Shown here piece after piece: positions 14,620 through 44,223 of a stretch of 64,000 nucleotides of DNA; within the stretch, counting starts at the first letter, position 1; each line of letters opens with the position of its first letter. The stretch lies in assembly GCF_044324875.1 (NCBI RefSeq), contig NZ_CP172185.1. One strand, 5' to 3'. Source of the DNA: Escherichia coli. GTDB lineage: Bacteria; Pseudomonadota; Gammaproteobacteria; Enterobacterales; Enterobacteriaceae. The notes under the pieces were generated by a model. It saw only the letters and a program-made list of their open reading frames with translations, was not told where the DNA came from and made no database searches. The translations under genes were made by a program, and so were the position numbers.

Positions 14620-16707
14620 ATGCGAATAACCACTCTGGCTTCAGTAGCCATCCCTTGTCTCGGATTTTCAGTCAGCAGCATGGCTGCGGAAGATGTGATG
14701 ATAGTCACCGCATCCGGCTATGAAAAAAAATTAACCAGTGCAGCTGCGAGTGTTTCGGTGATCAGTCAGGAGGACTTGCGATCCAGCCAGTATCATGATC
14801 TTGGGGAGGCACTGAGATCCGTAGAGGGGGTGGATGTTGAAAGCGGTACGGGTAAAACCGGTGGACTGGAAATCAGCATCCGTGGAATGCCTGCCAGTTA
14901 TACGCTGATACTGATTGATGGTGTCCGTCAGGGCGGGAGCAGAGACGTAACCCCGAACGGTTTTTCTGCCATGAACACGGGGTTTATGCCACCTCTGGCC
15001 GCCATCGAACGTATTGAGATTATCAGGGGCCCCATGTCCACTCTGTACGGCTCTGATGCCATGGGGGGCGTGGTGAATATCATCACCAAAAAGAATGCAG
15101 ACAAATGGCATTCTTCAGTTAATGCCGGGCTGAACCTGCAGGAAAGTAACAAATGGGGGAACAGCAGCCAGTTTAATTTCTGGAGCAGCGGCCCCCTGGT
15201 GGATAATTCTCTCAGCCTGCAGGTACGTGGCAGCACGCAGCAGCGACAGGGCTCATCGGTCACATCACTGAGCGGCACCTCAGCCACGCGCATCCCTTAT
15301 CCAACAGAGTCACAGAATTATAATGCAGGTGCTCGTCTTGACTGGAAAGCAACGGACAAGGATATGTTCTGGCTTGATATGGATACTGCACGACAGCGTT
15401 ATGATAACCGGGACGGCCAGCTGGGCAGCCTTACTGGCGGTTATGATCGTACCCTGCGCTATGAACGTAATAAAATTTCGGCAGGTTATGATCATGCATT
15501 CACCTTCGGAACCTGGAAGTCATCCCTGAACTGGAATGAGACGGAAAATAAAGGCCGTCAGCTTGTACGCAGCGTACTGAAGCGTGATAAATGGGGACTT
15601 GCCGGCCAGCCGAGGGAGCTTAAGGAGTCGAATTTTATCCTGAATTCCTTACTGCTTGCACCTGTGGGTGAATCTCACCTGGTTACTGTCGGTGGTGAGT
15701 ACCAGAACTCATCCATGAAAGACGGGGTTGTTCTCACCAGTACAGGCGAAACCTTCCGGCAGAAAAGCTGGTCGGCATTTGTTGAGGATGAGTGGCATAT
15801 CACGGATGCGGTTGCACTGACTGTGGGCAGTCGTTATGAACATCATGAGGTGTTCGGAGGACACCTCAGTCCGCGGGCATATATGGTCTGGGATGTGGCT
15901 GATGAGTGGACGCTGAAAGGTGGGGTGACCACGGGATATAAGGCACCCGGCATGGGGCAGTTACATAAGGGGATCAGCGGTGTGTCCGGTCAGGGGCGTA
16001 CGAATCTTCTCGGTAACCCGGACCTGAAGCCGGAGGAGAGTGTCAGCTATGAAGCGGGCGTGTATTACGATAATCATGCCGGTCTGAACGCCAATATCAC
16101 GGGCTTTATGACAGAGTTCTCCAACAAGATCGTATCTTATTCTATTGATGATAATACCCGCAGCTATACAAACAGCGGAAAGGCCAGGACTCAGGGTGTG
16201 GAGTTTGCCGGCACACTGCCTCTGTGGTCAGAGGATGTGACGCTGTCTCTGAATTATACCTGGACGCAGAGTGAACAACGGGATGGGGATAATAAAGGTG
16301 CACCACTGAGTTACACCCCTGAGCATATGGTGAATGCGAAACTGAACTGGCAGATTACTGAAGATGTGTCATCATGGCTGGGTGCCCGTTACCGCGGGAA
16401 AACGCCACGTTTCACCCAGAATTATTCGTCACTCTCAGCTGTACAGAAGAAAGTGTATGATGAGAAAGGTGAATATCTGAAAGCCTGGACGGTACTGGAT
16501 GCGGGCATGTCGTGGAAAGTGACGGATGCACTGACGCTGAATGCAGCGGTGAATAATGTGCTTAACAAGGATTACAGTGACGTAAGTCTGTATCGTGCCG
16601 GCAGTGGTACGCTTTATGCGGGTGATTACTTCCAGACGGGGGCATCGACAACAGGTTATGTGATACCGGAGAGAAATTACTGGATGTCGCTGAGCTATCA
16701 GTTCTGA
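14620..16707 (+). CDS. iha: TonB-dependent outer-membrane siderophore receptor/adhesin, Iha/IrgA-like
   Basis: 695 aa; signal peptide; TonB box EDVMIVTAS; plug motif IEIIRGPMSTLYGSDAMGGVVNIITKK; C-terminal YQF; N-terminus matches recalled Iha sequence. Confidence 0.75.
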   Translation: MRITTLASVAIPCLGFSVSSMAAEDVMIVTASGYEKKLTSAAASVSVISQEDLRSSQYHDLGEALRSVEGVDVESGTGKTGGLEISIRGMPASYTLILIDGVRQGGSRDVTPNGFSAMNTGFMPPLAAIERIEIIRGPMSTLYGSDAMGGVVNIITKKNADKWHSSVNAGLNLQESNKWGNSSQFNFWSSGPLVDNSLSLQVRGSTQQRQGSSVTSLSGTSATRIPYPTESQNYNAGARLDWKATDKDMFWLDMDTARQRYDNRDGQLGSLTGGYDRTLRYERNKISAGYDHAFTFGTWKSSLNWNETENKGRQLVRSVLKRDKWGLAGQPRELKESNFILNSLLLAPVGESHLVTVGGEYQNSSMKDGVVLTSTGETFRQKSWSAFVEDEWHITDAVALTVGSRYEHHEVFGGHLSPRAYMVWDVADEWTLKGGVTTGYKAPGMGQLHKGISGVSGQGRTNLLGNPDLKPEESVSYEAGVYYDNHAGLNANITGFMTEFSNKIVSYSIDDNTRSYTNSGKARTQGVEFAGTLPLWSEDVTLSLNYTWTQSEQRDGDNKGAPLSYTPEHMVNAKLNWQITEDVSSWLGARYRGKTPRFTQNYSSLSAVQKKVYDEKGEYLKAWTVLDAGMSWKVTDALTLNAAVNNVLNKDYSDVSLYRAGSGTLYAGDYFQTGASTTGYVIPERNYWMSLSYQF

Positions 16708-28802: not shown

Positions 28803-28944
28803 TTGTTGATGCTATCACGATATTCGCGATGCGGTAAATATATCAATATGTTGGTTTATTTGTGTAATACATTATTTCCCATACGCCATAAATCAGTCTG
28901 TTGACGATAGCTTTTTTCTTTTGTTATTCTGTACCCGCTTTAAC

Positions 28945-29187
28945 TGTCGCTTCGGCGACCACCAATGTTCCATGAGGCCTGTGAGGAACGCCTTCGGGTG
29001 GCCCACGTCGCTCCGGCGACCACCAATGCTCCATCTGACCTGTGAGGAGCGCCTTCGGGTGGTCAGTTTTACACCTCCGTAGCCTGAAAGGAGCTGTGCG
29101 TGCTGATGGGATATGTTCCCGGAAGTACGGGTAAATCTGCACACCTTTGCGAGCAGATGTCACCACGGTTTACGTGATGATGAAGGC
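28945..29187. repeat. 244-bp direct repeat copy A with internal 48-bp tandem sub-repeat
   Basis: about 95 percent identical to 31740-31983. Confidence 0.8.
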
Positions 29188-29921
29188 ATTCCGGATTTCG
29201 TCCGGTACTTTTACTTTTTCTCAGCAGACTTTCATAAAAATGCTTTATGGATCTGCTTCTTAAGATGTTTTCTGGCTTTCCGCATAAGCTTCTTATGACT
29301 GTGCGCACGGCATAAGGCCATTTGAAATTTGGCCGCTTGCGTGTGTACGTGGATTTTGAAGCCTTGCGGCGTCACTTGAGTGCGACCGTAGGGAACACCA
29401 AGTGACGCCACAACAATCTGCCCTGAAAGCAGCATCACGTAAGGCCAGCCAGAAAATCGTCGCTCGTGACCAGCGTTCTGATGACCGTTTCGTCTGTCTG
29501 ACAGCGTCTTTCAGTAACGTGTCCATGCCTTTCCGGCGCGTCCGTTTTCACGGACGGCCACGCCGGAATGTCTTTTTAAACTTCATAATACATGAGAGGT
29601 AAGTGTATTAACTTGTTGAAAAAAGGAATAAATATGAAAAATCGTTCTGAAGTCGGAAGGCGTCATCGTAAGATGACGGGGAGTAAAAAATCGCCCTGGT
29701 GCACAGGTAGCGAACTCCTGTAAAAACTCAACATGTGCAAGCTCTGCTACATCGACATCAAACGAGCCAGGAAGGCGAGCAACCGCGTTACAGAGCCGTC
29801 CGTGATGACGAAAAACTAACAATATCAACGATCTGGTCTGTTTATCGGAAGGGCATCTCATGCAGTTGAACTTTCAGAACGGATGGTTTTCTGCATCTTT
29901 TTTAACAGGGGGATTGACGTT

Positions 29922-31583: not shown

Positions 31584-31739
31584 CCTGATATCTCTCTTTA
31601 AGGTTCATTAAGAGTGTTACTGAGTAAAAAAATATCAAATTAAGTATTTATTGTCATTCAGTTGTAGCTTCTCAGCCGCTCCACGACAATAACAACTTGA
31701 AGTTTTATGCAGTTTGTGCTTACAATTTAAACGCTAACT

Positions 31740-31983
31740 TGTCGCTTCGGCGACCACCAATGTTCCATGTGGCCTGTGAGGAACGCCTTCGGGTGGCCCA
31801 CGTCGCTCCGGCGACCACCAATGCTTCATCTGACCTGTGAGGAGCGCCTTCGGGTGGTCAGTTTTACACCTCCTGAGCCTGAAAGGAGCTGTGCGTGCTG
31901 AAGGGATATGTTCCCGGAAGTACGGGCAAATCTGCGCACCTTTGAGAGCAGATGTCACTGCGGTTTTCCGTGATGATGAAGGC
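31740..31983. repeat. 244-bp direct repeat copy B
   Basis: pairs with 28945-29187. Confidence 0.8.
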
Positions 31984-33331: not shown

Positions 33332-33884
33332 CTGTCTTTGTTCATGGCTTTTCAACAGACCGTTATGCTTTCGCCACCACATGGTAAGGCGGGTCTGATT
33401 TTACTGTTAACCGTACGGTTCACTCTCATACCGTACGGTGGGAGTGAACCCTTTTCATTAAGGACACTCTCATGAAAACGAAAACTTCTGCACCTGCTGT
33501 ATATGTTGGTACCTGGGCTAAATACAACAATGGCAGCATAGAAGGATGCTGGTTTAATGATTTAACCGTTTTTGAAACTGAAAGCGATTTTTTATCTGCG
33601 GCCCGTAAGTTTCATCAGGATGAAAAAGATCCTGAATTTATGTACCAGGATTATGAAAACTTTCCTTCGGGAATGGCTTCAGTGCAAAATGGCATCTGAA
33701 TCGATCGCAGTTTGGCATTCGAATCGATCATGATTTGGCATCCATCTCCGATCACAGTTTGGCATCACAATCGATCACGATTTGGCATGCTTCCGATCAT
33801 TGATTGGCATCCTGCCAGTCACTCCGGGAATTAACTCTTTTCACCACAGTCTCCATTGCCGTGTTTAAACCAGTGGAGACGTCA

Positions 33885-35450
33885 ATGTCCAGAAAGAGAA
33901 AATCCAGGAGCACTATGGAAACCTGTTTTAAGATCCTTCAGCTCAAGTTCGACAAGAAGCTGACTAACCGTTGTATCGGACTGACGTTACACATCAGCGC
34001 CTCAACCGTTTTTGAGGTTCTTGCCCGCTTCAAAGCCTCTTCTCTGTCATGGCCATTACCTGCTGATATATCCCATGACACGCTGGAGAAACTCATTTTT
34101 CCGCCCAAAGACACCTTTGCATCAGAGCTTGTAATGCCTGACATGTTGTACTTCGATACGGAAATGAGAAAACCAGGTGTGACGCGGCAACTGTTGTGGA
34201 TGGAATACAAGGCACAGGCGGGTAACAAAGCGATGGGATACTCGCACTTCTGCCGTTGCTACCGGGAGTGGAAAAAAACGCGACGTCTCTCCATGCGCCA
34301 GGAGCATCGTGCCGGCGAAAAGCTTTTTATCGACTTCTGTGGTCCTACGGTTCCTGTTATTAATCCGGACACCGGTGAGATACGCCGCGTGGCAATCTTC
34401 GTGGCCGTAATGGGGGCGTCCAACTATACCTACGTTGAAGCGTGCGAAGGTCAGGACATGATGTCATGGTTAAATGCCCACAGCCGTTGCCTGACCTTCC
34501 TGGGCGGCGTACCGAAGCTGCTCATCCCCGATAACCTCAGAAGCGCAGTGAAAAAGGCCGATCGATATGAGCCTGTCATCAACGACAGTTATCAGGCACT
34601 GGCTGAGCACTATGGCACGGTTATCATCCCGGCCCGACCACGCAAACCTAAAGATAAACCAAAAGCAGAAAACGGCGTCCTCATCGTTGAACGATGGCTT
34701 CTTGCCCGCATCCGTAATGAAACCTTCCACACGCTCAGGGCGCTGAATGCGCGCCTTAGGGAGTTACTGACAGACATGAATAACCGGCCAATGAAGGGGT
34801 ACGGCAATCAAACCCGTGCAGAACGCTTCCGCATACTGGATGCGCCAGCACTCTCTCCGCTGCCTCTGGCACCTTATGAATACACGGAATACAAAGCTGT
34901 GAAGGTTGGCCCTGACTACCACGTTGAATATGCCCGTCACTGGTACTCCGTTCCACACGAACTGGTCGGTCAGCGTCTGTCACTGAAGGCGGGGCAGTCG
35001 GTGGTACAGCTCTGGCACAAGGGGCAGTGTGTGGCGCAACATCCGCGCAGCACACATGAATATAAACACACAACCAATCCGCTTCACATGCCAGAGCGCC
35101 ACCGGCAGCACGGGACATGGACACCGGAACGCCTGATCGAGCAGGGAAAACGTACGGGCCCGTCCACAGGCCGGGTGGTTGAATCCATGCTGAAGGCAAA
35201 ACCCCATCCGGAACTGGCTTATCGTGCAGTTCTGGGGCTGCTGGCACTTCAGAAAAAATACGGCCCGGAACGGCTGGAAAAGGCCTGTTACGTTGCCCTG
35301 CACTATAACGCCCCTGACAGACGCTTTATCGACAATCTGCTGCGTCACCATCGGGAGAACCTGGAGCTTCCATTATCCCGCCAGGGCGAACAACATCCGG
35401 CATATGCTTCAGAGCATGAAAACCTGCGTGGTCCGGGCTACTACCACTGA
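33885..35450 (+). CDS. istA: IS21-family transposase IstA
   Basis: 521 aa, N-terminal HTH and DDE-like core; GGAGA RBS. Confidence 0.7.
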   Translation: MSRKRKSRSTMETCFKILQLKFDKKLTNRCIGLTLHISASTVFEVLARFKASSLSWPLPADISHDTLEKLIFPPKDTFASELVMPDMLYFDTEMRKPGVTRQLLWMEYKAQAGNKAMGYSHFCRCYREWKKTRRLSMRQEHRAGEKLFIDFCGPTVPVINPDTGEIRRVAIFVAVMGASNYTYVEACEGQDMMSWLNAHSRCLTFLGGVPKLLIPDNLRSAVKKADRYEPVINDSYQALAEHYGTVIIPARPRKPKDKPKAENGVLIVERWLLARIRNETFHTLRALNARLRELLTDMNNRPMKGYGNQTRAERFRILDAPALSPLPLAPYEYTEYKAVKVGPDYHVEYARHWYSVPHELVGQRLSLKAGQSVVQLWHKGQCVAQHPRSTHEYKHTTNPLHMPERHRQHGTWTPERLIEQGKRTGPSTGRVVESMLKAKPHPELAYRAVLGLLALQKKYGPERLEKACYVALHYNAPDRRFIDNLLRHHRENLELPLSRQGEQHPAYASEHENLRGPGYYH

Positions 35451-35466
35451 CAGAAGGAACAACAGT

Positions 35467-36222
35467 ATGAGTGATAACCTGTTAAACAAACTGACCCAAC
35501 TGAAACTCCCGGCGATGGCCGGGAGCCTGATACGGCAGCGGGAAACGCCTCAGACCTACGACGAACTGTCGTTCGAGGAAAGGCTGACGCTGCTGGTTGA
35601 TGACGAGCTTCTGAGCAGGGAAAACAGCCGTGTGGCACGGTTGAGAAAAAATGCCGGCCTGAAATACCAGGCAACACCGGAAGGGCTGCGCTATCCGGCC
35701 TCAAGAGGTCTGCGGGCTGAACAGATGAGAGAACTGCTGAACGGCCACTACATAACCCACAGGAAAAACCTGCTGATAACCGGTCCGACAGGATGTGGCA
35801 AGAGCTGGATAGCCAATGCGCTGGGCGAACAGGCATGTCGACAGAAACACAGCGTCCGGTACTGTAGAACCGGGCGATTACTGGAACAACTGGCTCAGGG
35901 ACGTGTTGATGGCAGCTGGCTGAAATATCTGAAACAGTTGCAAAAAATACAGGTTCTAATCCTGGACGATCTGGGGCTGGAACAGTTAAGTAACGCCCAG
36001 TGTAATGACCTTCTGGAGCTCATAGAGGATCGTTACGGACAAAGCAGCACGATAGTGGTAAGCCAGTTCCCGGTAGATAAATGGCATGGTCTGATGGAGA
36101 ACCCAACAACAGCAGATGCCATCCTGGACAGACTGGTACATAACTCACACCGAGTGGTCCTTCAGGGAGAGTCACTGAGGAAAAATCCCCCGGTAGTGGA
36201 AAGCAGCGAAAAAACGCGTTAA
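35467..36222 (+). CDS. istB: IS21-family helper ATPase IstB
   Basis: Walker A GPTGCGKS, Walker B ILDDLG. Confidence 0.75.
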   Translation: MSDNLLNKLTQLKLPAMAGSLIRQRETPQTYDELSFEERLTLLVDDELLSRENSRVARLRKNAGLKYQATPEGLRYPASRGLRAEQMRELLNGHYITHRKNLLITGPTGCGKSWIANALGEQACRQKHSVRYCRTGRLLEQLAQGRVDGSWLKYLKQLQKIQVLILDDLGLEQLSNAQCNDLLELIEDRYGQSSTIVVSQFPVDKWHGLMENPTTADAILDRLVHNSHRVVLQGESLRKNPPVVESSEKTR

Positions 36223-36823
36223 AAAGCGGTAGAAAAAGTTAAGTTCCCGGTTGATCGAATGGATGCGAATCGCTGATCGGACTTCGATGCCAATCCGTGA
36301 TCGAATAGAGCGGAATACGCAGCTTCAGAATATGGTTTCAACTGGGCTTATGTTGAAGGTTATCGTCTTGCCCGTGAAGAAGGCTGTGAAGATGCATGGT
36401 ATGCATGGGTTTCTAATACCGGTGATACCTGTTTCGAACAGTTCAGGGAGGCGTGGCTTGGTGGTCCTTATGACAGTGAACTCGAGTTCGCCGCGCAGTA
36501 CGTGGATGAATGCGGTTTTCTGTCAGAGGTACCTGATACTGTTGCACGCTATTTTGATTATGAGGCTTTTGCGCGCGATTTGTTCATGGAACTGGATTTT
36601 GTCGACGGACACGTTTTCCATCGGTAACTCACAGCCATGAGGGCGCATATAAGCCGTGTACTGGCGGATGTGATTTCAGCATACATTCTGCTGGTTTTTT
36701 TACCGTTGTTGACAATTTTAATCATCGCGGATGAACAACCTGAACTCTGTTGTTCACCGCCCGGAGGCATCGTTCCTTCGGACGGTGTGCTCTTTCATCA
36801 GAAAGAATCAGACAGGGGGTTTT

Positions 36824-37183
36824 ATGTATTCGCGTTTTATTACTGGTTACTGGCATCTTCAGACGCAGTCCGCTTTGCTGGCACATCTCTGTCAGCTTGA
36901 AGGTGAACTGACGATACTTCGCGCCTGGCAACGTCTCGGAATTACCCCGGTGCCGGAGGATGAAGATGAGCCTTCACCACTTTACTCAATTTTGTGGGAT
37001 GTTGGTGAGGCTCTGGGCTGGTTGCTGTATGACCTGGAGATGGAAAATGTTCCTGCACCGGGAACGATTTTCCACGAGGTATTCGACAGGGTTATATCTC
37101 TGGGGTATGAGACTGAGCCCGGTATCTGGGCTGAAAGTATCAGTACCGGAAAGCGCTACGCTGCAATGCCTGACGAATTTTAA
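36824..37183 (+). CDS. hypothetical protein (gene 1 of 4-gene cluster)
   Basis: GGGGG RBS; acidic 119 aa. Confidence 0.35.
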   Translation: MYSRFITGYWHLQTQSALLAHLCQLEGELTILRAWQRLGITPVPEDEDEPSPLYSILWDVGEALGWLLYDLEMENVPAPGTIFHEVFDRVISLGYETEPGIWAESISTGKRYAAMPDEF

Positions 37184-37250
37184 TGTTTTCCACATTCCCA
37201 CAGGGACTCATCCCTGTGGGACGGGTCCCGGCTTTTTCAGGAGAAATTTC

Positions 37251-37589
37251 ATGAGACCCGATTTGAATACTTTACCCGGAGATTCCGGCTGCAGCGTCTG
37301 GTTCTATGACGGAATGTCTCAACCGCGTCTGCTGGCGGGCAGTATTGCCGGGTTACTGACGGATGTTACGATCACATCGAATTACCGTGGTGACGTCACA
37401 TCTGAAATTCATGACGTGGTGCAGGAGTGGCTTGCGACCGGCAGGGGTAACCTGGCGGATTTAAAGGAAGAACTCTGGTACTACAACCTCTACATAAATC
37501 CGTCGGCAGACGAACTTATGAATGCCAACAGGCGGTATGGCCTCGGACATACCACCAGGCTGAAAGGCTTTATCAATAACGCGGCGTGA
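37251..37589 (+). CDS. hypothetical protein (gene 2)
   Basis: AGGAG RBS; 112 aa. Confidence 0.35.
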   Translation: MRPDLNTLPGDSGCSVWFYDGMSQPRLLAGSIAGLLTDVTITSNYRGDVTSEIHDVVQEWLATGRGNLADLKEELWYYNLYINPSADELMNANRRYGLGHTTRLKGFINNAA

Positions 37590-37664
37590 CACACCGCCAT
37601 CCCGTGAGGGCTCAGCTCCTCACGGGGCTGTTCCCTCGGTGATTTTCATACAGAGAGGAGCAGA

Positions 37665-38102
37665 ATGATGAACGTTAAGTCTGTGACTGAGGTTGACGAC
37701 GCTGTGGTTGCCCGTGTCAGTGAAGTTCTGGAATTCGCATTTCCGGGGCAGAAATTTGAAGTGCTGAAGGTATGCGATTCCGGCGTTTACAACATGATTA
37801 ATGTGTACTGGCTGGACGGCCCGACACAGGCTGAAGTGCGGTTTATCACCCGTGCGTTTGAAGGCAAAAACGGGCTGAGGTTTGTGCACGAATCCCGCGA
37901 ATTCAGTAATGAATTTGTGCAGGAGTGCATTGACCGGCTTCGCCAGAAGTACGGGCATCGCAACGTTCCGCCAGAGGTGACCGTGGAGCGTTACTGGAAA
38001 AACGATCTGTGGAAGATTAAAACAGATCGTTTCCCGGGCACTATTGAGGTTGCCATCAACGAAATGGGGATGGAAACCAGTAAATACCGGAAGGTTGTAT
38101 AA
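37665..38102 (+). CDS. hypothetical protein (gene 3)
   Basis: GAGAGGAG RBS; 145 aa. Confidence 0.35.
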   Translation: MMNVKSVTEVDDAVVARVSEVLEFAFPGQKFEVLKVCDSGVYNMINVYWLDGPTQAEVRFITRAFEGKNGLRFVHESREFSNEFVQECIDRLRQKYGHRNVPPEVTVERYWKNDLWKIKTDRFPGTIEVAINEMGMETSKYRKVV

Positions 38103-38209
38103 CCGGCTGGACTTTTGACGATGGCGGAATGTGACAATTCCGCTTTTCCCGTGAGGGCATTGTTCCTCACGGGACAATGCCCTCTTCATTTACCAGAGGA
38201 GCATTGATT

Positions 38210-39187
38210 ATGGCTGAATGGTGCAGAAATCGTTTTGAAATCACCGGTAAGTCAGTCTGTCTTGACGTACTGATTCAGTGGATTGAAGGGAATGATGCCC
38301 CCCGGTACCGTCATGCGATCCAGCAGAGCATACTGCTGTTTCTTGCAGGCTGTGCGGGGATACTGAAACCGGTAAGAACGGTGTCATATCCGCCTTATCC
38401 CGGGCTGGTCAGTCACGGTGCCGGCTCAACAACTGTAGCCAGTCAGGCGTTTGAACAATGGCTGGGATTACTGACCAGGGATGCCTTCCTTGATCACGAG
38501 ACGGTGAAGACAATAGATCGTCTTTATCATCAGACAGGGACAGGCGCTATCCGGTGGAGTAATCTGCCTGATACGGCGAAGGAGATAATCGGTGGTGTGC
38601 TTGCACAACAATATGCTGACTGGTTTGGCGTGGCGGATGTGTATGAACGCCCTGATAACGCCTTTCTCTGGGAGTCGTTGTTAACATTTGCGGAGTATTC
38701 GCAACCCTGTGATATGCTGCAGGTGATGCCAACACGACTGGCCACGGAGCTGAACGGAAGTGGTGGTTTGCTGAAAGGCACCGGAACGACCCGCAGTTTT
38801 TACTGCCGCCAGTTTGGTATGGAGTACCCACTGGGGCAGAATGTCCGGTGGAAACGAACCGGGCTGAGTACGTTGATACTGGAGTTTGATACCATCTGGT
38901 GTCCGCCTTCAGGTGTACTGGTGGGGGAGATTTCGGCAGTGTTTGACTGTGAGGTCCGTCACTGGTACAGCGAGCCGAAGAACGGAATCAGAGGCTATGA
39001 CTGTTATGATGGTGGTGAACATACGGACAGCAATATGGAAGCCGAATGGCCACACTCTGACGATGAGGGGGAGGTCGCGGAGCATGAGCAGCCACAACTC
39101 TGTCTGATCAGGGACACGCAGCCAGGTGAACGCGTCATGGCATTAGCATCAGTCGAGTCCCCGGGGCCAGTAGTAAAAATAGTGTAA
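38210..39187 (+). CDS. hypothetical protein (gene 4)
   Basis: AGGAG RBS; 325 aa, acidic C-terminus. Confidence 0.35.
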   Translation: MAEWCRNRFEITGKSVCLDVLIQWIEGNDAPRYRHAIQQSILLFLAGCAGILKPVRTVSYPPYPGLVSHGAGSTTVASQAFEQWLGLLTRDAFLDHETVKTIDRLYHQTGTGAIRWSNLPDTAKEIIGGVLAQQYADWFGVADVYERPDNAFLWESLLTFAEYSQPCDMLQVMPTRLATELNGSGGLLKGTGTTRSFYCRQFGMEYPLGQNVRWKRTGLSTLILEFDTIWCPPSGVLVGEISAVFDCEVRHWYSEPKNGIRGYDCYDGGEHTDSNMEAEWPHSDDEGEVAEHEQPQLCLIRDTQPGERVMALASVESPGPVVKIV

Positions 39188-39196
39188 TGAAACAAT

Positions 39197-39221
39197 GCGC
39201 CACATTTTGTGGCGCTTTTTT
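39197..39221 (+). terminator. rho-independent terminator
   Basis: GCGCCACA tttt GTGGCGC followed by T6. Confidence 0.55.
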
Positions 39222-39268: not shown

Positions 39269-42184
39269 TTACTGAGTCAGTTTTTTTATCAGGTCGTGAA
39301 TTTTATCACCTGAAAACTGGGTCATGAAAGTTATCTTTATGGATTTACTGATTTGTTCGAAGAGTTTCTGTGCATGTTTTATTTTATCGCGTTCTTCATG
39401 TCTGAGTTCACGTTTGCCATCAACATTTTTGGTTTCAATAATAAGGTTCAGATAATCACCCTTTGACGTGTTTACAACATAAGCGAAGTCAGGGGAGTAA
39501 GTGTATCCTCCCGCTACAGGAATTTTTATTGAATTTTTGGGGATCTTTGTGAAGACAATGACTGACCTGACCTCACCCTCTGTCATATTGAGTTTTTCAA
39601 GTTCTGAATCATAAAATACTTCTTCAAAAAGATAAGAGTCCAGTGGAGGGCTTGTATTATCCTGTAAAACGCCAAGATCACTTGACAATACATCAGCAAG
39701 ATAACCGCCGTCTGCATTGGTGAATTTCGTGGGATGGACAGTTCCTGATATTACATTATACCCAAGGCTGAATTTACTGAACGAGTTATTAAGCAAATAC
39801 TTGCTGAAACCAGATTTAATTTTTCTGATTGTCTGAATGTTAAGGTATTCAGTTATATTTATGATGTCTTTTATATCACAAAAAACCTTATGCATGGTGT
39901 CATGTTTGACAAAAATAGTCTGTGATAATTTATCAAGGAATTCACGATAGCTCATTGTGTTTATTTTGTGAAAATTATCCTCATCAACACTGAGAATGCT
40001 TTTCGACATTGCCGTATCATTATGGATATAAATTCTTTCAATACGAGTATGAGCACCGGATTTGGTAAATCTGTCTGCTTCTTCCAGCATAAACGCTCTG
40101 AAAAGGGATAAAAACTCACGTTCACTTTTTATTTTATACTCAATCACGACCTTTTGATTGATCAAGTCCCATAGTTCTTTCAGCTCACTGAACTTACCAA
40201 CACGCATTTTAGTGCGTCTTTTTCCATCAGAGGCTTTTTTTATTTTGCCTGGTTTCACTCCTGCAGGAAATGCTGCCGGATATCTGGCTTTTAAGCGGCT
40301 ATAGGCATCTGAATCTTTGAAGTTATCATTATCATCAATGATCTCATCATCAAAAATTTCATTCAAGAGTGTTCTGGAGGAAAGCTCCGGATATTGAGAC
40401 AGGATTTTATCCTTAAGTTCCTGAGTAAACTTACCTGGAACAGTCTCTTTGAAAGAACTATCGTTGATCTCTTTGACAAGAGAATCGACAAAATCTTTTT
40501 CTGTAAAATCAACATAATAGTTGAGGGTAAAATTGCGGTCTTTCACACGACACATGTATTCATTCACCGGAAGACGTAAACCACGCCCTACTTCCTGAAG
40601 TTTAGATGTGGTGCTACCGCTCGAACGGAGCTTACAAATCTGAAAGACATTTGGGTTATCCCATCCCTCACGCAACGTCCATTTAGAGAAAATGAAACGG
40701 CGAGGATTTTCTAAAGACAATAGAAGCTCTTTATCATGAAGGATTTCGTTGATTTCCTGCTCAATTTTATCATCTTTATCACTATTATCTTTTGAAAAAT
40801 AACCACCATGAACAGAAGATATATCCTTAACAGTTTTTTCAAGGTAGTTTCTGTAAAACTCATCTTTTTCTGTTTTTAACAGTTCATTTGCTTCTGCCAA
40901 AACGTATTCTTCGAACTTAGTTTTCAGGCTTCCTGCAATATCATTACCATCACGATAGCCTTCAATGTCATCAATGAAGAAAAGAGTAAGAGGTTTTATG
41001 CGTGGCCTTTGTGTCAGATACTCTTTTTCTAACTTAAAGTGTTCTTTGACAGCTTTACGTATCATGTTATCAGCAAGTGTCTGATCGTAAGAATAGGGGT
41101 TTATCGAACTACCAATTTTTAGCTCAATACCATTACTCAACACTGCTGTATTCTTATTTAAAGCATCAAGAGTTAAATCATGGATCGCACTATGCGTCTT
41201 AGATAGTGATTCACCTTTGGCTAACTTAAAAATTTTTTTATTATTATTTTCGTTCAGTTCAAATGTAGCTTCTTTTCCGTCAGATTTGACCAACTTGAGG
41301 TTGGCATTACCATCACCAACTATATCCTCAATGTATGCATCAATACCTTTAACAAGATCTTCATTGAAGGCATCTACGGCTGTAAGACGATAAACTAAGT
41401 TCTTATATCCTTCACTAAAGGTTGCACCATAGCGGATGATATATTGGGCATTAAATTTTTGAATATGTTCCCATGTCTTTTTACCAGTAGGAAATTTATG
41501 AGGCTCATCAATGATAATGAATGGTTTTATCGCACTAAGTGCAGAAAATGGGGTATCAAACTGATTATTAAGCAAGCCAACATCATAAGTGTCAGTTAAA
41601 GACTTAGAGTTAATCATCCCTGAATTGATCACAAGAATGTGTATATATTTCTTATTGAAATTACTTGCTTCAACAAAATCATGGATAGCTTGAGGCATAT
41701 ACGATTTTGTATTTTTACCCGAACGTTTCTGACTTTCAACAACGTAAGTCTTTAGTTCACGCTCGTAATCATCTCGAAAGTGTTCTTTTATAGCATCGCT
41801 TTTTAAAAAGTTAACGGTTCCGGCTTTGATCGATAGGGTAGGAACAATGATGATAAACTTGTTAATACCAAATGATTTGTTCAGGTCAAAAATTGTTTTG
41901 GTGTAAGTATAAGTTTTACCTGTACCTGTCTCCATAGAAACATCAATTACGTTGCTTTTAGCATCGTAATTATCTTTTGAGTGCTCAATACCATTGAACT
42001 CCTGAACATTTTTTATGTTGTTGTAGTATTGTTGTTCAGATAGATTCAGTTCTGGATTAGCTAACAGGCGAATTGCAACATGATCCGTCTGATGAGGTAT
42101 GGCGGATACAAAGACATTCATTACCGAATCAACGCCAGCCTTTTGATGAGGTAAATTTTTTTCGAATGTGAACCCTTTAGACAT
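39269..42184 (-). CDS. res: Type III restriction enzyme, Res subunit
   Basis: 971 aa; Walker A METGTGKT; DEAH-like IIIDEPH; immediately downstream of mod. Confidence 0.8.
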   Translation of the reverse strand: MSKGFTFEKNLPHQKAGVDSVMNVFVSAIPHQTDHVAIRLLANPELNLSEQQYYNNIKNVQEFNGIEHSKDNYDAKSNVIDVSMETGTGKTYTYTKTIFDLNKSFGINKFIIIVPTLSIKAGTVNFLKSDAIKEHFRDDYERELKTYVVESQKRSGKNTKSYMPQAIHDFVEASNFNKKYIHILVINSGMINSKSLTDTYDVGLLNNQFDTPFSALSAIKPFIIIDEPHKFPTGKKTWEHIQKFNAQYIIRYGATFSEGYKNLVYRLTAVDAFNEDLVKGIDAYIEDIVGDGNANLKLVKSDGKEATFELNENNNKKIFKLAKGESLSKTHSAIHDLTLDALNKNTAVLSNGIELKIGSSINPYSYDQTLADNMIRKAVKEHFKLEKEYLTQRPRIKPLTLFFIDDIEGYRDGNDIAGSLKTKFEEYVLAEANELLKTEKDEFYRNYLEKTVKDISSVHGGYFSKDNSDKDDKIEQEINEILHDKELLLSLENPRRFIFSKWTLREGWDNPNVFQICKLRSSGSTTSKLQEVGRGLRLPVNEYMCRVKDRNFTLNYYVDFTEKDFVDSLVKEINDSSFKETVPGKFTQELKDKILSQYPELSSRTLLNEIFDDEIIDDNDNFKDSDAYSRLKARYPAAFPAGVKPGKIKKASDGKRRTKMRVGKFSELKELWDLINQKVVIEYKIKSEREFLSLFRAFMLEEADRFTKSGAHTRIERIYIHNDTAMSKSILSVDEDNFHKINTMSYREFLDKLSQTIFVKHDTMHKVFCDIKDIINITEYLNIQTIRKIKSGFSKYLLNNSFSKFSLGYNVISGTVHPTKFTNADGGYLADVLSSDLGVLQDNTSPPLDSYLFEEVFYDSELEKLNMTEGEVRSVIVFTKIPKNSIKIPVAGGYTYSPDFAYVVNTSKGDYLNLIIETKNVDGKRELRHEERDKIKHAQKLFEQISKSIKITFMTQFSGDKIHDLIKKLTQ

Positions 42185-42186
42185 GA

Positions 42187-44223
42187 TTAGTTTCTTACCA
42201 CCAAATCTAAATCAATAGATTTTTTATTAGCATAACTTTTTAGTGCTTCATTGAGTTCCATCTGTTTCGCACTTTCGAAGTTGCTGCCATAAAATACAAC
42301 TTTGTTAGGGGCAAAGTCTTTGTCTGCATCCAGCTTTTGAAGTAAAGCTTTCAAAGCCTCACTTGTGAAATTAGGCGCAATTAGATATAGCCGACCATCG
42401 CACAAGTGTGCTTTGTAGCCATTAAGGTCAATATCTTCAATTGGTGTTGTTAGCAAGCTGCCATCATACACGCACCATGTCGTCAATAGAGTGTCATACT
42501 GCTCTGGTGTCAATACAGCATCGTCAAAGAAACTAAGATTAGAAAGCGTAAGTTCAGACTCATCTTTCACTCGAAAATTATGAACTGTTTCAAATATTTT
42601 AAATCCCAAATCTCCATTATAATTAGGATTATCTTTTTTCAGCTTTTTTCCTGCCTTAATAATTCTGTCTTTTGTTATATTGAAGATGGATTTATACCCT
42701 TCTTTATAGGCTTGTTTCTTTTTATCTGTTTCTTCATCTAATTGAACACAGATGAAGTTTCTTTTCCTGCCGTCTTCAATATTTAACTCCAGAATACCAT
42801 GAGCTGTAGTTCCAGAGCCAGCAAAAAAGTCAAGATAAATGTCTTTATCTTCGGTTTTTACTGAACCAAATAGTGTTTTTATTAAACTTGTTGGCTTCGG
42901 GTAGGAGAAATATCCTTTCCCACCAAAAAGATTTTCAACCTCAACACCACCATCACTTTTAGTTGAAATAATTGATCTTAGTAAAAACTCTTCAACTTCA
43001 TCTAAAAATTTAACCGAACTGGGTTGGGTGTTTTCTGTACTGGCAAACCAAATTCCACCACAAATAACGCTACCATCATGTAGTTTTTTGATATCTGCAT
43101 ACTTTCCATCTATTCTTTTTGCAATATGATTAAAAGTGCCTTCTTTCCAACGCCAGCCTCTGTCTGGGATTTTGACAGGGTTATTAGTCAAAGGGTGCAA
43201 TACTTCATACGTGGGTCCAAATGAATCTGCATTAGGCCAGCTCATATTAATTTTACCCCATGGCCTATAATCTTCGTTCAAACAGTTGTAAAGAGTAATT
43301 CCACGATCATATCCGTTGGAGCTGTAGAATTTTTTGAGTTGCTGCTCTGCTTTATCTAATGGCACCTTCTCCTTTTTTAACTTTTCAATAAACTGATATA
43401 CATCATCAATACCATCTTTCCGCATTAAAAATTCTTTACTTATTTCGTTATTCTTCGCATAAGCAAGGATGTACTCATGGATATTACCAATACCCTTATC
43501 ATTTTTAGGGATACGTTTATTCCATACAATATTTTCTATGAAATTTGCTTCGCCAAAAATTTCATCACAAATAGTTTTAAGTTGATTTAATTCATTTTCG
43601 TCAATCGAAATAAATATCACACCATCTTCACGTAGAAGCTCACGAGCAATATATAAACGAGGATAAATGAACGTTAACCATGCGCTATGGCTGCTTGAAC
43701 CATTCGTGGTAAATTCAAGTATACGTTTAGCCTCATCAAGATCGATACCTGCCAGATCAGAAAGCTGTTCAGGTGTAAACTTGCGATCATCGTTATAGGC
43801 GAATCCATCCTTACCTGTATTGTATGGTGGATCAATGTAAATCATCTTCACCTTTTCAGAGTAAGCATTAACCATATGCTTCAATACTTCGAGGTTATCC
43901 CCTTTGATTAACAGATTCTGACTGTTTTTGTTCTCTTCACGTTGGTTATGGTCTTTATCTTCGGAGAGTAATGTCTTCGGCGGCAAGTTAGCTAACAGAC
44001 GGGCATAGGATTTACCAAGCCAGTTCAGGCTGTATGATTCTTTGGAGAGTTCAACATCCGATGATTTGACGATTTCAAGCAATTTTTCCTGAATGAACGC
44101 TCCATTTTTATCAAAACACTGTGGAAAGTTAGCCTTTAAAATCGCAAGCTGTTTACTGTTTGTGGTTTCAGTTTCAGAGAAAAGAGTTTCTTTTTTCAGT
44201 TGAAATTGGGGTTGTGTATTCAT
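42187..44223 (-). CDS. mod: Type III restriction-modification methyltransferase, Mod subunit
   Basis: 678 aa; DPPY motif (IYIDPPYNTG); AdoMet motif FFAGSGTT; GGAGG RBS. Confidence 0.8.
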   Translation of the reverse strand: MNTQPQFQLKKETLFSETETTNSKQLAILKANFPQCFDKNGAFIQEKLLEIVKSSDVELSKESYSLNWLGKSYARLLANLPPKTLLSEDKDHNQREENKNSQNLLIKGDNLEVLKHMVNAYSEKVKMIYIDPPYNTGKDGFAYNDDRKFTPEQLSDLAGIDLDEAKRILEFTTNGSSSHSAWLTFIYPRLYIARELLREDGVIFISIDENELNQLKTICDEIFGEANFIENIVWNKRIPKNDKGIGNIHEYILAYAKNNEISKEFLMRKDGIDDVYQFIEKLKKEKVPLDKAEQQLKKFYSSNGYDRGITLYNCLNEDYRPWGKINMSWPNADSFGPTYEVLHPLTNNPVKIPDRGWRWKEGTFNHIAKRIDGKYADIKKLHDGSVICGGIWFASTENTQPSSVKFLDEVEEFLLRSIISTKSDGGVEVENLFGGKGYFSYPKPTSLIKTLFGSVKTEDKDIYLDFFAGSGTTAHGILELNIEDGRKRNFICVQLDEETDKKKQAYKEGYKSIFNITKDRIIKAGKKLKKDNPNYNGDLGFKIFETVHNFRVKDESELTLSNLSFFDDAVLTPEQYDTLLTTWCVYDGSLLTTPIEDIDLNGYKAHLCDGRLYLIAPNFTSEALKALLQKLDADKDFAPNKVVFYGSNFESAKQMELNEALKSYANKKSIDLDLVVRN

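Follow-up and report, generated by a model that had tools for sequence, protein, structure and literature searches.

What do four small genes do that stand in a row between a disrupted antirestriction gene and a Type III restriction–modification (R-M) locus? The question is raised by 64,000 nt of Escherichia coli DNA (contig NZ_CP172185.1; the whole stretch is called the window in the following), in which four consecutive genes, here named A to D, occupy positions 36824-39187. A first-pass annotation of this stretch had regarded them as candidates for an uncharacterised defence or counter-defence module. We found that A–D are genuine, separately assorting single-gene cassettes: the idea of a module and the link to the R-M locus should both be dropped, whereas counter-defence survives as an inferred role.

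The four open reading frames (ORFs) themselves held up. All lie on the plus strand: gene A at 36824-37183 (119 aa; Shine–Dalgarno (SD) site caggggg-N4-ATG), gene B at 37251-37589 (112 aa; caggag-N8-ATG), gene C at 37665-38102 (145 aa; gaggag-N4-ATG) and gene D at 38210-39187 (325 aa; gaggag-N8-ATG). These coordinates and SD sites, which had been judged credible at first sight, agree with the coding sequences in RefSeq: the chromosome of E. coli GF43 is 100% identical over the region and is annotated with the identical four coding sequences, starts included. Pairwise dN/dS ratios of 0.31, 0.46, 0.22 and 0.22-0.26 were obtained for A, B, C and D, respectively, i.e. the genes are under purifying selection; because of these ratios, the Pfam matches of C and D and the cross-genus relatives of B and D they are more than chance ORFs. 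Their G+C content (GC) is 50-53%, with 51% for the whole window, and the products have isoelectric points of 4.3 (A), 4.9 (B), 6.2 (C) and 4.9 (D).

Whether the genes belong together can be judged from their co-occurrence across genomes, a check that the first-pass annotation had itself proposed. Eighty loci with a relative of D, taken from various species of Enterobacterales, were each searched for candidate neighbours. An orphan N6-methylase was found downstream of D in 58/80 loci, TraI downstream in 51/80 and ArdC upstream in 31/80. An A-like gene (27-30% identity) occurred elsewhere in the array of D in 4/80 loci; B, C and ArdA were each found with D in 0/80. The full set A-B-C-D is present in one E. 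coli lineage of integrative and conjugative elements (ICEs) only (52/5426 genomes), and related E. coli ICEs show the orders ArdC-A-B-C-D (strain G8), ArdC-D-methylase (RM13752) and x-D-methylase (NC101). Between G8 and the window the genes A, B and C are 91-93% identical and D only 64%, and B carries a nonsense codon in one ICE variant (see below). By these counts, identities and the interrupted B gene, the cluster is not conserved as a unit, an outcome that the first-pass annotation had itself named as a refutation, and the proposed four-gene module falls. What is conserved is a core of the order ArdC-DUF1281-(DUF5983)-methylase-UvrD-TraI, seen in Erwinia pEB102, Salmonella SGI4 and a Klebsiella plasmid, with DUF1281 standing for gene D; A, B and C are optional. 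G8 also contains a second DUF1281 copy (L004:16173-16529), which is internally deleted, 92-95% identical to D of the window and located 5 kb downstream of the 64%-identical resident gene, with a leader element of its own at 16108-16155: this copy is a trace of cassette replacement.

The flanks of the run are as first described, with an ardA gene disrupted by an insertion sequence (IS) on one side and Type III res on the other. The Type III res/mod pair (39269-44223, minus strand) is convergent with D, tail to tail. Its GC is 36%, as compared with 50-53% for A–D and 51% for the whole window. Among the 52 E. coli genomes with the full order ArdA-A-B-C-D, most lose similarity ~30 bp past the stop codon of D and contain no R-M genes; in 5CRE51 other small genes and traF are found at this place. 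Since its GC is low and only a minority of the related ICEs carry it, the Type III R-M locus is recently acquired cargo unrelated to A–D, and the informative neighbours are ArdA/ArdC and the ICE backbone. This bears directly on the notion that A–D constitute one co-operating defence system, for example a new anti-phage system, and make up a defence island together with the neighbouring R-M genes. The adjacency of the R-M locus, the shared orientation and short gaps of A–D and the correspondence of the slot to 'GI-Hotspot 2' of PAPI-1, which often holds defence systems, speak for it. Against it stand, besides the separate origin of the low-GC insertion, the lack of co-conservation, the absence of ATPase, nuclease or other sensor/effector domains and a search of all four proteins against PADLOC-DB 2.0 at E <= 0.1 that returned 0 families; moreover, what is conserved alongside D, namely anti-restriction genes and orphan methylases, belongs to the offensive side. 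We therefore consider such a defence system very improbable. That A–D are not housekeeping genes was seen correctly at the outset: they are accessory genes of a mobile element in a counter-defence neighbourhood.

This mobile element could be identified. The window represents an E. coli ICE integrated at tRNA-Phe, of the PAPI-1/pKLC102/SPI-7 kind, ICEEc2-like, with MPF_G-type transfer and a MOBH relaxase; tRNA-Phe ICEs in E. coli are called ICEEc2 in work cited in PMC11537424. In GF43 the element measures ~78 kb from ParA to the site-specific integrase and ends beside tRNA-Phe. It carries a transfer gene set of the TIGR037xx type (MPF_G), a type IVb pilus operon with shufflon and an SPI-7-type DnaB, and a UvrD-like helicase and a TraI-domain relaxase adjoin the integrase. 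Genes A–D lie in an array between the TraG-N gene and the relaxase, a TraG-helicase slot that is a defence/anti-defence hotspot in PAPI-1 islands of Pseudomonas (PMC12629846). The layout of the array is fixed: a STAXI motif, an EFASI motif, an integrase-domain gene, a second STAXI, small co-oriented genes, ArdA/ArdC and DUF1281, followed at its downstream end usually by the orphan N6-methylase, the UvrD-like helicase and then TraI. The order STAXI-EFASI-integrase-domain gene-STAXI-small genes was observed in 7 loci from 5 genera, with all motifs on the gene strand. In the window the first STAXI (Rfam RF01728) lies at 29006-29179, EFASI (RF02957) at 29642-29764 and the STAXI heading the small-gene run (RF01728) at 31740-31911, all on the plus strand. 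According to Weinberg et al. (2010, PMC2864571), STAXI is associated with genes for anti-restriction, ssb, topoisomerase and integrase, and the sense-strand position of both motifs here, ahead of the array and its homologues, fits these published associations. As a side observation, STAXI may serve as a transcribed leader or entry-phase signal for the array. Farther upstream, the ICE backbone carries a paralogue of the type B, zinc-independent ribosomal protein L31 as cargo (L001:13173-13436, L002:12692-12955).

The lack of a recognisable family holds for A and B only; C belongs to LPD29 and D to DUF1281/YubB/Api92, a family with a solved structure. Searches of A–D against NCBIfam gave no match and those against PHROGs gave families of 'unknown function' only, and A, B and C had no match among Protein Data Bank (PDB) sequences. 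Gene D matches PF06924 (DUF1281; independent E-value (i-E) 9.7e-66, residues 31-205) and PF18406 (DUF1281_C; i-E 9.6e-14, residues 211-287), and aligns with PDB entry 2IJR (Api92 from the YAPI island of Yersinia pseudotuberculosis, a 'hypothetical protein') at E 2e-106. It has the 2IJR fold with 53% identity in the structural alignment: the predicted architecture comprises a ferredoxin-like core, a helical insertion and a disordered acidic tail, whose residues 286-320 are modelled with a predicted local distance difference test (pLDDT) score < 50. Residues D168, E180, S242 and H251 are invariant in the alignment. A query of genome contigs with D alone yielded no relative; an alignment-based query recovered relatives. 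The family is restricted to Enterobacterales ICEs and plasmids, with relatives of 31-34% identity on at least 5000 plasmids, mainly conjugative plasmids of E. coli. On IncF plasmids the leading region has the D relative at its far end, just after sopAB; next come a small ORF and an orphan methylase, then klcA, ssb and psiB. Samuel et al. (2024, PMC11541004) list DUF1281 ('Uncharacterized; DUF1281', YubB/YccB/YfdA) as number 27 of the 100 largest families with leading-region enrichment. In plasmid F (NC_002483; L010:7856-8745) the DUF1281/yubB homologue appears to be a pseudogene, since its alignment spans two frames and no coding sequence is listed. A Citrobacter sp. protein of 406 aa (P0128) joins ArdC-N to DUF1281; either the two genes that usually adjoin have truly fused, or a frameshift has produced an artefact.

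Gene C matches PF18847 (LPD29) with an i-E of 2.2e-7 over residues 14-69, which covers model positions 6-57 of 93 only, and the RefSeq product name for C is LPD29 as well. Its relatives are found on 163 plasmids, 136 of them conjugative, and the leading region of IncN holds one in the order ssb-ardB-ardR-LPD29. LPD29 was defined as a domain in polyvalent proteins of phages and conjugative elements with no function assigned (Iyer et al. 2017, PMC5512222), and aca4 operons contain LPD29 genes (2026 preprint).

For gene B neither a Pfam nor an NCBIfam family was found, and a Pfam profile search with the B family was empty, with no match to the LPD families. B matches PHROG 10958 and PHROG 32750 and has ~35 representative relatives at 30-48% identity, which share the motif Y-F-Y-N-G..P..LA...Y-x-G-D-x-T...N-P-T. 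Relatives were found in 44 Firmicute phages and on a Rep3 plasmid of 30 kb, where small genes in series precede the relaxase and the B relative is one of them. The predicted fold of B (pLDDT 83) resembled segments of Lactobacillus proteins of 543-759 aa in a Foldseek search of AFDB50 (probability 1.0, E 3e-4 to 1e-2, TMq 0.57-0.70), two of which carry PBECR4 or DUF3945, hallmarks of polyvalent proteins. These structure matches suggest that the B fold may recur as a domain inside polyvalent-type proteins. In the common ICE variant of the E. coli 5CRE51 type (L002:20653-20991) B is pseudogenised by the in-frame stop E74*, and RefSeq annotates a 73-aa product. Gene A matched no Pfam, NCBIfam or PADLOC family; its family is very small and confined to these ICE arrays, where one relative (P0148) stands in the order IntDom...A-like...ArdC-DUF1281. 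Comparison of A with a paralogue-like gene of 62% identity gave a dN/dS of 0.34 at a dS of 0.89.

One could ask whether C and D are the only real genes and whether A and B might be spurious ORFs or ORFs in decay, devoid of function. The very narrow distribution in a word-indexed search, the nonsense codon in B and the derivation of dN/dS from few substitutions would agree with this, but the relatives at 27-48% identity have conserved motifs and matching lengths, the B fold is predicted confidently, and dN/dS stays below 1 even for A against the A-like gene at its high dS. As A and B also each have a proper SD site and are each preceded by a copy of a leader element, we regard spurious A and B genes as quite unlikely and treat all four as real.

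This leader element is the most novel item at the locus: every intergenic gap of the A–D run contains a related element of ~48 nt. The copy before D (38145-38192, plus strand) scored 68.9 bits with a covariance model (CM) built from 12 element copies (CM R1); its sequence can form two mutually exclusive hairpins, CCCGTGAGG/CCTCACGGG and GAGGGCATTGT/ACAATGCCCTC, followed by a T-rich tail. The copy before C (37598-37647, plus strand) scored 56.6 bits and was recognised by the direct repeat D4 and by its fold as well. A divergent copy before B (37205-37245, plus strand) was not detected by CM R1; it has the same architecture, with CCCACAGGG/CCCTGTGGG and then GGGAC/GTCCC and GCTTTTT. A weaker copy, which lay outside the seed, precedes A (36757-36800, plus strand; 19.3 bits, E 0.005). 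CM R1 gave nothing convincing over the 64-kb window beyond the copies before A, C and D. In 54 other loci we obtained 41 CM matches, of which 41/41 share the strand of the genes; they directly precede D, weaker ones occur before the methylase and other cassette genes, and the element is kept upstream of D in at least 30 loci; the yubB loci of IncF contain no copy. Weaker copies were also noticed between DUF5983 and the orphan methylase (L012:10343-10392, L025:9050-9099, L030:8544-8593, L026:11277-11326). Because of the copies at this position, the element is not specific for DUF1281 and marks several cassette junctions.

The two mutually exclusive hairpins are of nearly equal predicted stability, e.g. 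-20.0 vs -21.3 kcal/mol. The folding comparison of the hairpins gave 22/28, which is a lower bound as the automatic boundary rule is unfit for ~6 sequences. In helix 2, 85% of the positions are paired and 8/11 pairs show compensatory changes, well above slid controls; helix 1, judged on an alignment made without regard to structure, is 80% paired with 3/9 pairs compensated. The covariation extends across genera of Enterobacterales. Together with the T-run, the 3' arm of helix 2 is complementary to the SD site of the following gene, and minimum free energy folds contain helix 1 and this anti-SD pairing at the same time. The predicted unpaired probability of the SD site was 0.16 on average for 27 leaders of D homologues and 0.42 for 50 other ICE genes (Mann-Whitney p 1e-5). 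G-U pairs account for 17% of the helix-2 cells, which speaks for a structure of the sense-strand RNA. Two other structures were considered and rejected. One was a single-stranded DNA structure on the transferred strand, where the G-U pairs would become C-A mismatches of the complementary strand; the other was an H-type pseudoknot, which would require interleaved stems without connecting loops and which the alternative hairpins outperform. A search against Rfam at E <= 1 returned no family for the element.

How are genes with such leaders transcribed? No sigma-70-like site was found on the plus strand between the IS and position 39400, so that A–D rely on transcription from upstream. Sigma-70-like sites lie at 28901-28930 and 31697-31726 (plus strand), each directly before a STAXI. 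In the window, ardA (33472-36627, plus strand) is split into a 5' part (33472-33682) and a 3' part (36322-36627) by an IS21-family element (33683-36321) of 2.64 kb, which has a 7-bp target duplication at its flanks and contains the istA and istB ORFs; in GF43 and most relatives ardA is intact. The insertion separates A–D from the promoter upstream and presumably interrupts this transcription in the window. A strong terminator, said earlier to close the run, is indeed present at 39197-39221 (plus strand): an 8-bp stem with 6 G-C pairs (hairpin 39197-39215) is followed by the T-run TTTTTT. It is bidirectional and faces the convergent res gene too. It is not the sole terminator-like structure, as a hairpin with a T-rich tail is also found in each gap within the run.

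What, then, might the products do? From their place in the array beside an anti-restriction gene, with ArdA directly upstream in the co-oriented run and ArdC plus the orphan methylase instead in relatives, A–D are candidates for genes that help the ICE establish itself in a new host. We favour, with modest confidence and on the grounds of genomic context, the view that they act in the ICE counterpart of a leading-region anti-defence/establishment island. The products, which are small, mostly acidic, devoid of a recognisable catalytic domain and probably non-enzymatic, would bind proteins of the recipient cell, nucleic acids or the incoming DNA soon after transfer, and would thereby blunt host defences or help the incoming single strand to establish; each would act alone and not as part of a four-part machine. 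Expression would come by read-through from the promoter that precedes STAXI, and the structured leader would act as a gate for each cistron, its two nearly isoenergetic hairpins deciding on access to the SD site. Several points weigh against this view. The functional assignment is guilt by association: NCBIfam, PHROGs and PDB searches with A–D gave no characterised anti-defence family, only 'unknown' entries. B is dispensable in the 5CRE51-type lineage, as it is a pseudogene there, and D may have an enzymatic role, to judge from the few invariant polar residues D168, E180, S242 and H251. In the ICE of the window, traI lies ~25 kb downstream of D, with cargo and pilus genes in between, whereas it follows directly in pEB102-type relatives; the oriT (origin of transfer) of the PAPI-1/ICEclc family could not be placed from the literature, and neither Rfam nor a consensus search revealed an Frpo-like single-stranded DNA promoter, with STAXI at the head of the run instead. 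Finally, the element as a translational or attenuation-type leader is a prediction in which sequestration of the SD site comes from thermodynamics only.

The main rival is donor-side housekeeping, i.e. A–D would serve the upkeep of the ICE itself in the donor or after integration, for example in transfer regulation, replication, partition of the excised form or entry exclusion. D looks like a backbone gene, as it stands directly upstream of methylase-UvrD-TraI in many elements; its relative abuts sopAB in IncF, its invariant D, E, S and H residues fit an enzyme or ligand site, and none of the four families has a known function. A, B and C, on the other hand, are sporadic and replaceable, unlike core functions. 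Relatives of B and LPD29 are also known from polyvalent proteins and from Firmicute phages that are lytic or large, none of which share housekeeping with ICEs, and the DUF1281 copy of the F plasmid is apparently frameshifted, yet F is transfer-proficient. We hold this explanation to be possible but rather unlikely, and an establishment role early after entry remains our preferred reading.

Two bolder proposals can be made. Tentatively, and with more doubt than confidence, it can be suggested that the array is a platform for cassettes, whose promoterless genes each have an undescribed bistable RNA leader gating their translation, for instance so as to restrict expression to the entry phase, and that at least one of A–D represents a new anti-defence class. 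That the elements could mediate an integron-like exchange of cassettes together with STAXI/EFASI and the integrase-domain gene appears far-fetched.

A–D are largely ordinary hypothetical cassette genes in an array of a known kind, and for two of them the literature had already drawn attention to the named family. At present no source yields more new anti-defence proteins than arrays of the leading-region type, and DUF1281/YubB is present on thousands of IncF resistance and virulence plasmids and has had a crystal structure since 2006 with its function still unassigned. The analysis separates the conserved partners (ArdC, DUF1281, methylase, relaxase) from the optional ones and thereby gives a short list of testable candidates, and it corrects a tempting but wrong link to the adjacent R-M genes. 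If the leader is a real switch, it would explain the control of dozens of promoterless cassette genes in these elements.

Among known systems, the leading-region anti-defence islands of plasmids come closest: they are likewise composed of small co-oriented genes, among which anti-restriction genes (ArdA, ArdC, KlcA) alternate with orphan methylases, ssb and many uncharacterised families. In IncI and IncF, single-stranded DNA promoters drive a strong early induction of such operons, klcA and an orphan methylase included, in transconjugants (PMC12672017). The leading regions of IncF and IncN have a similar gene content to the array (YubB/DUF1281, LPD29, anti-restriction genes, orphan methylases and ssb), but the window differs in that it represents a chromosomal MOBH/MPF_G ICE with an array headed by STAXI/EFASI and an integrase-domain gene. 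An orthologous trio of D, a hypothetical gene and the methylase in IncF and the ICEs was considered and rejected: no homology could be detected between the methylases or between the small genes in the middle. As the methylases are not homologous, the resemblance is functional synteny and not orthology. D itself is only 31-34% identical to YubB of IncF, and differs from both 2IJR/Api92 and YubB by its longer, disordered acidic C-terminal tail. C (LPD29), and possibly B by its fold, resemble the solo domains of polyvalent proteins, which occur beside type IV secretion system genes and for which roles in early invasion were proposed (Iyer et al. 2017, PMC5512222). In contrast to the polyvalent proteins themselves, B and C are free-standing small proteins and are not fused to ArdC-N, MPTase or methylase-helicase domains. 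The leader element has two counterparts of its own. It is intercistronic and shares with STAXI a construction from interleaved pairings; it differs from STAXI as a distinct sequence of ~48 nt that lies right on each SD site. The CUP (conserved upstream) repeats, which Delver and Belogurov reportedly described in 1997 for the leading region of the IncN plasmid pKM101, carry promoters under the control of ArdK. They are likewise a repeated conserved element before several leading-region genes, at the boundaries of mosaic modules; in contrast to these promoter-bearing repeats, the element described here contains no sigma-70-like hexamers and resembles an RNA hairpin switch.

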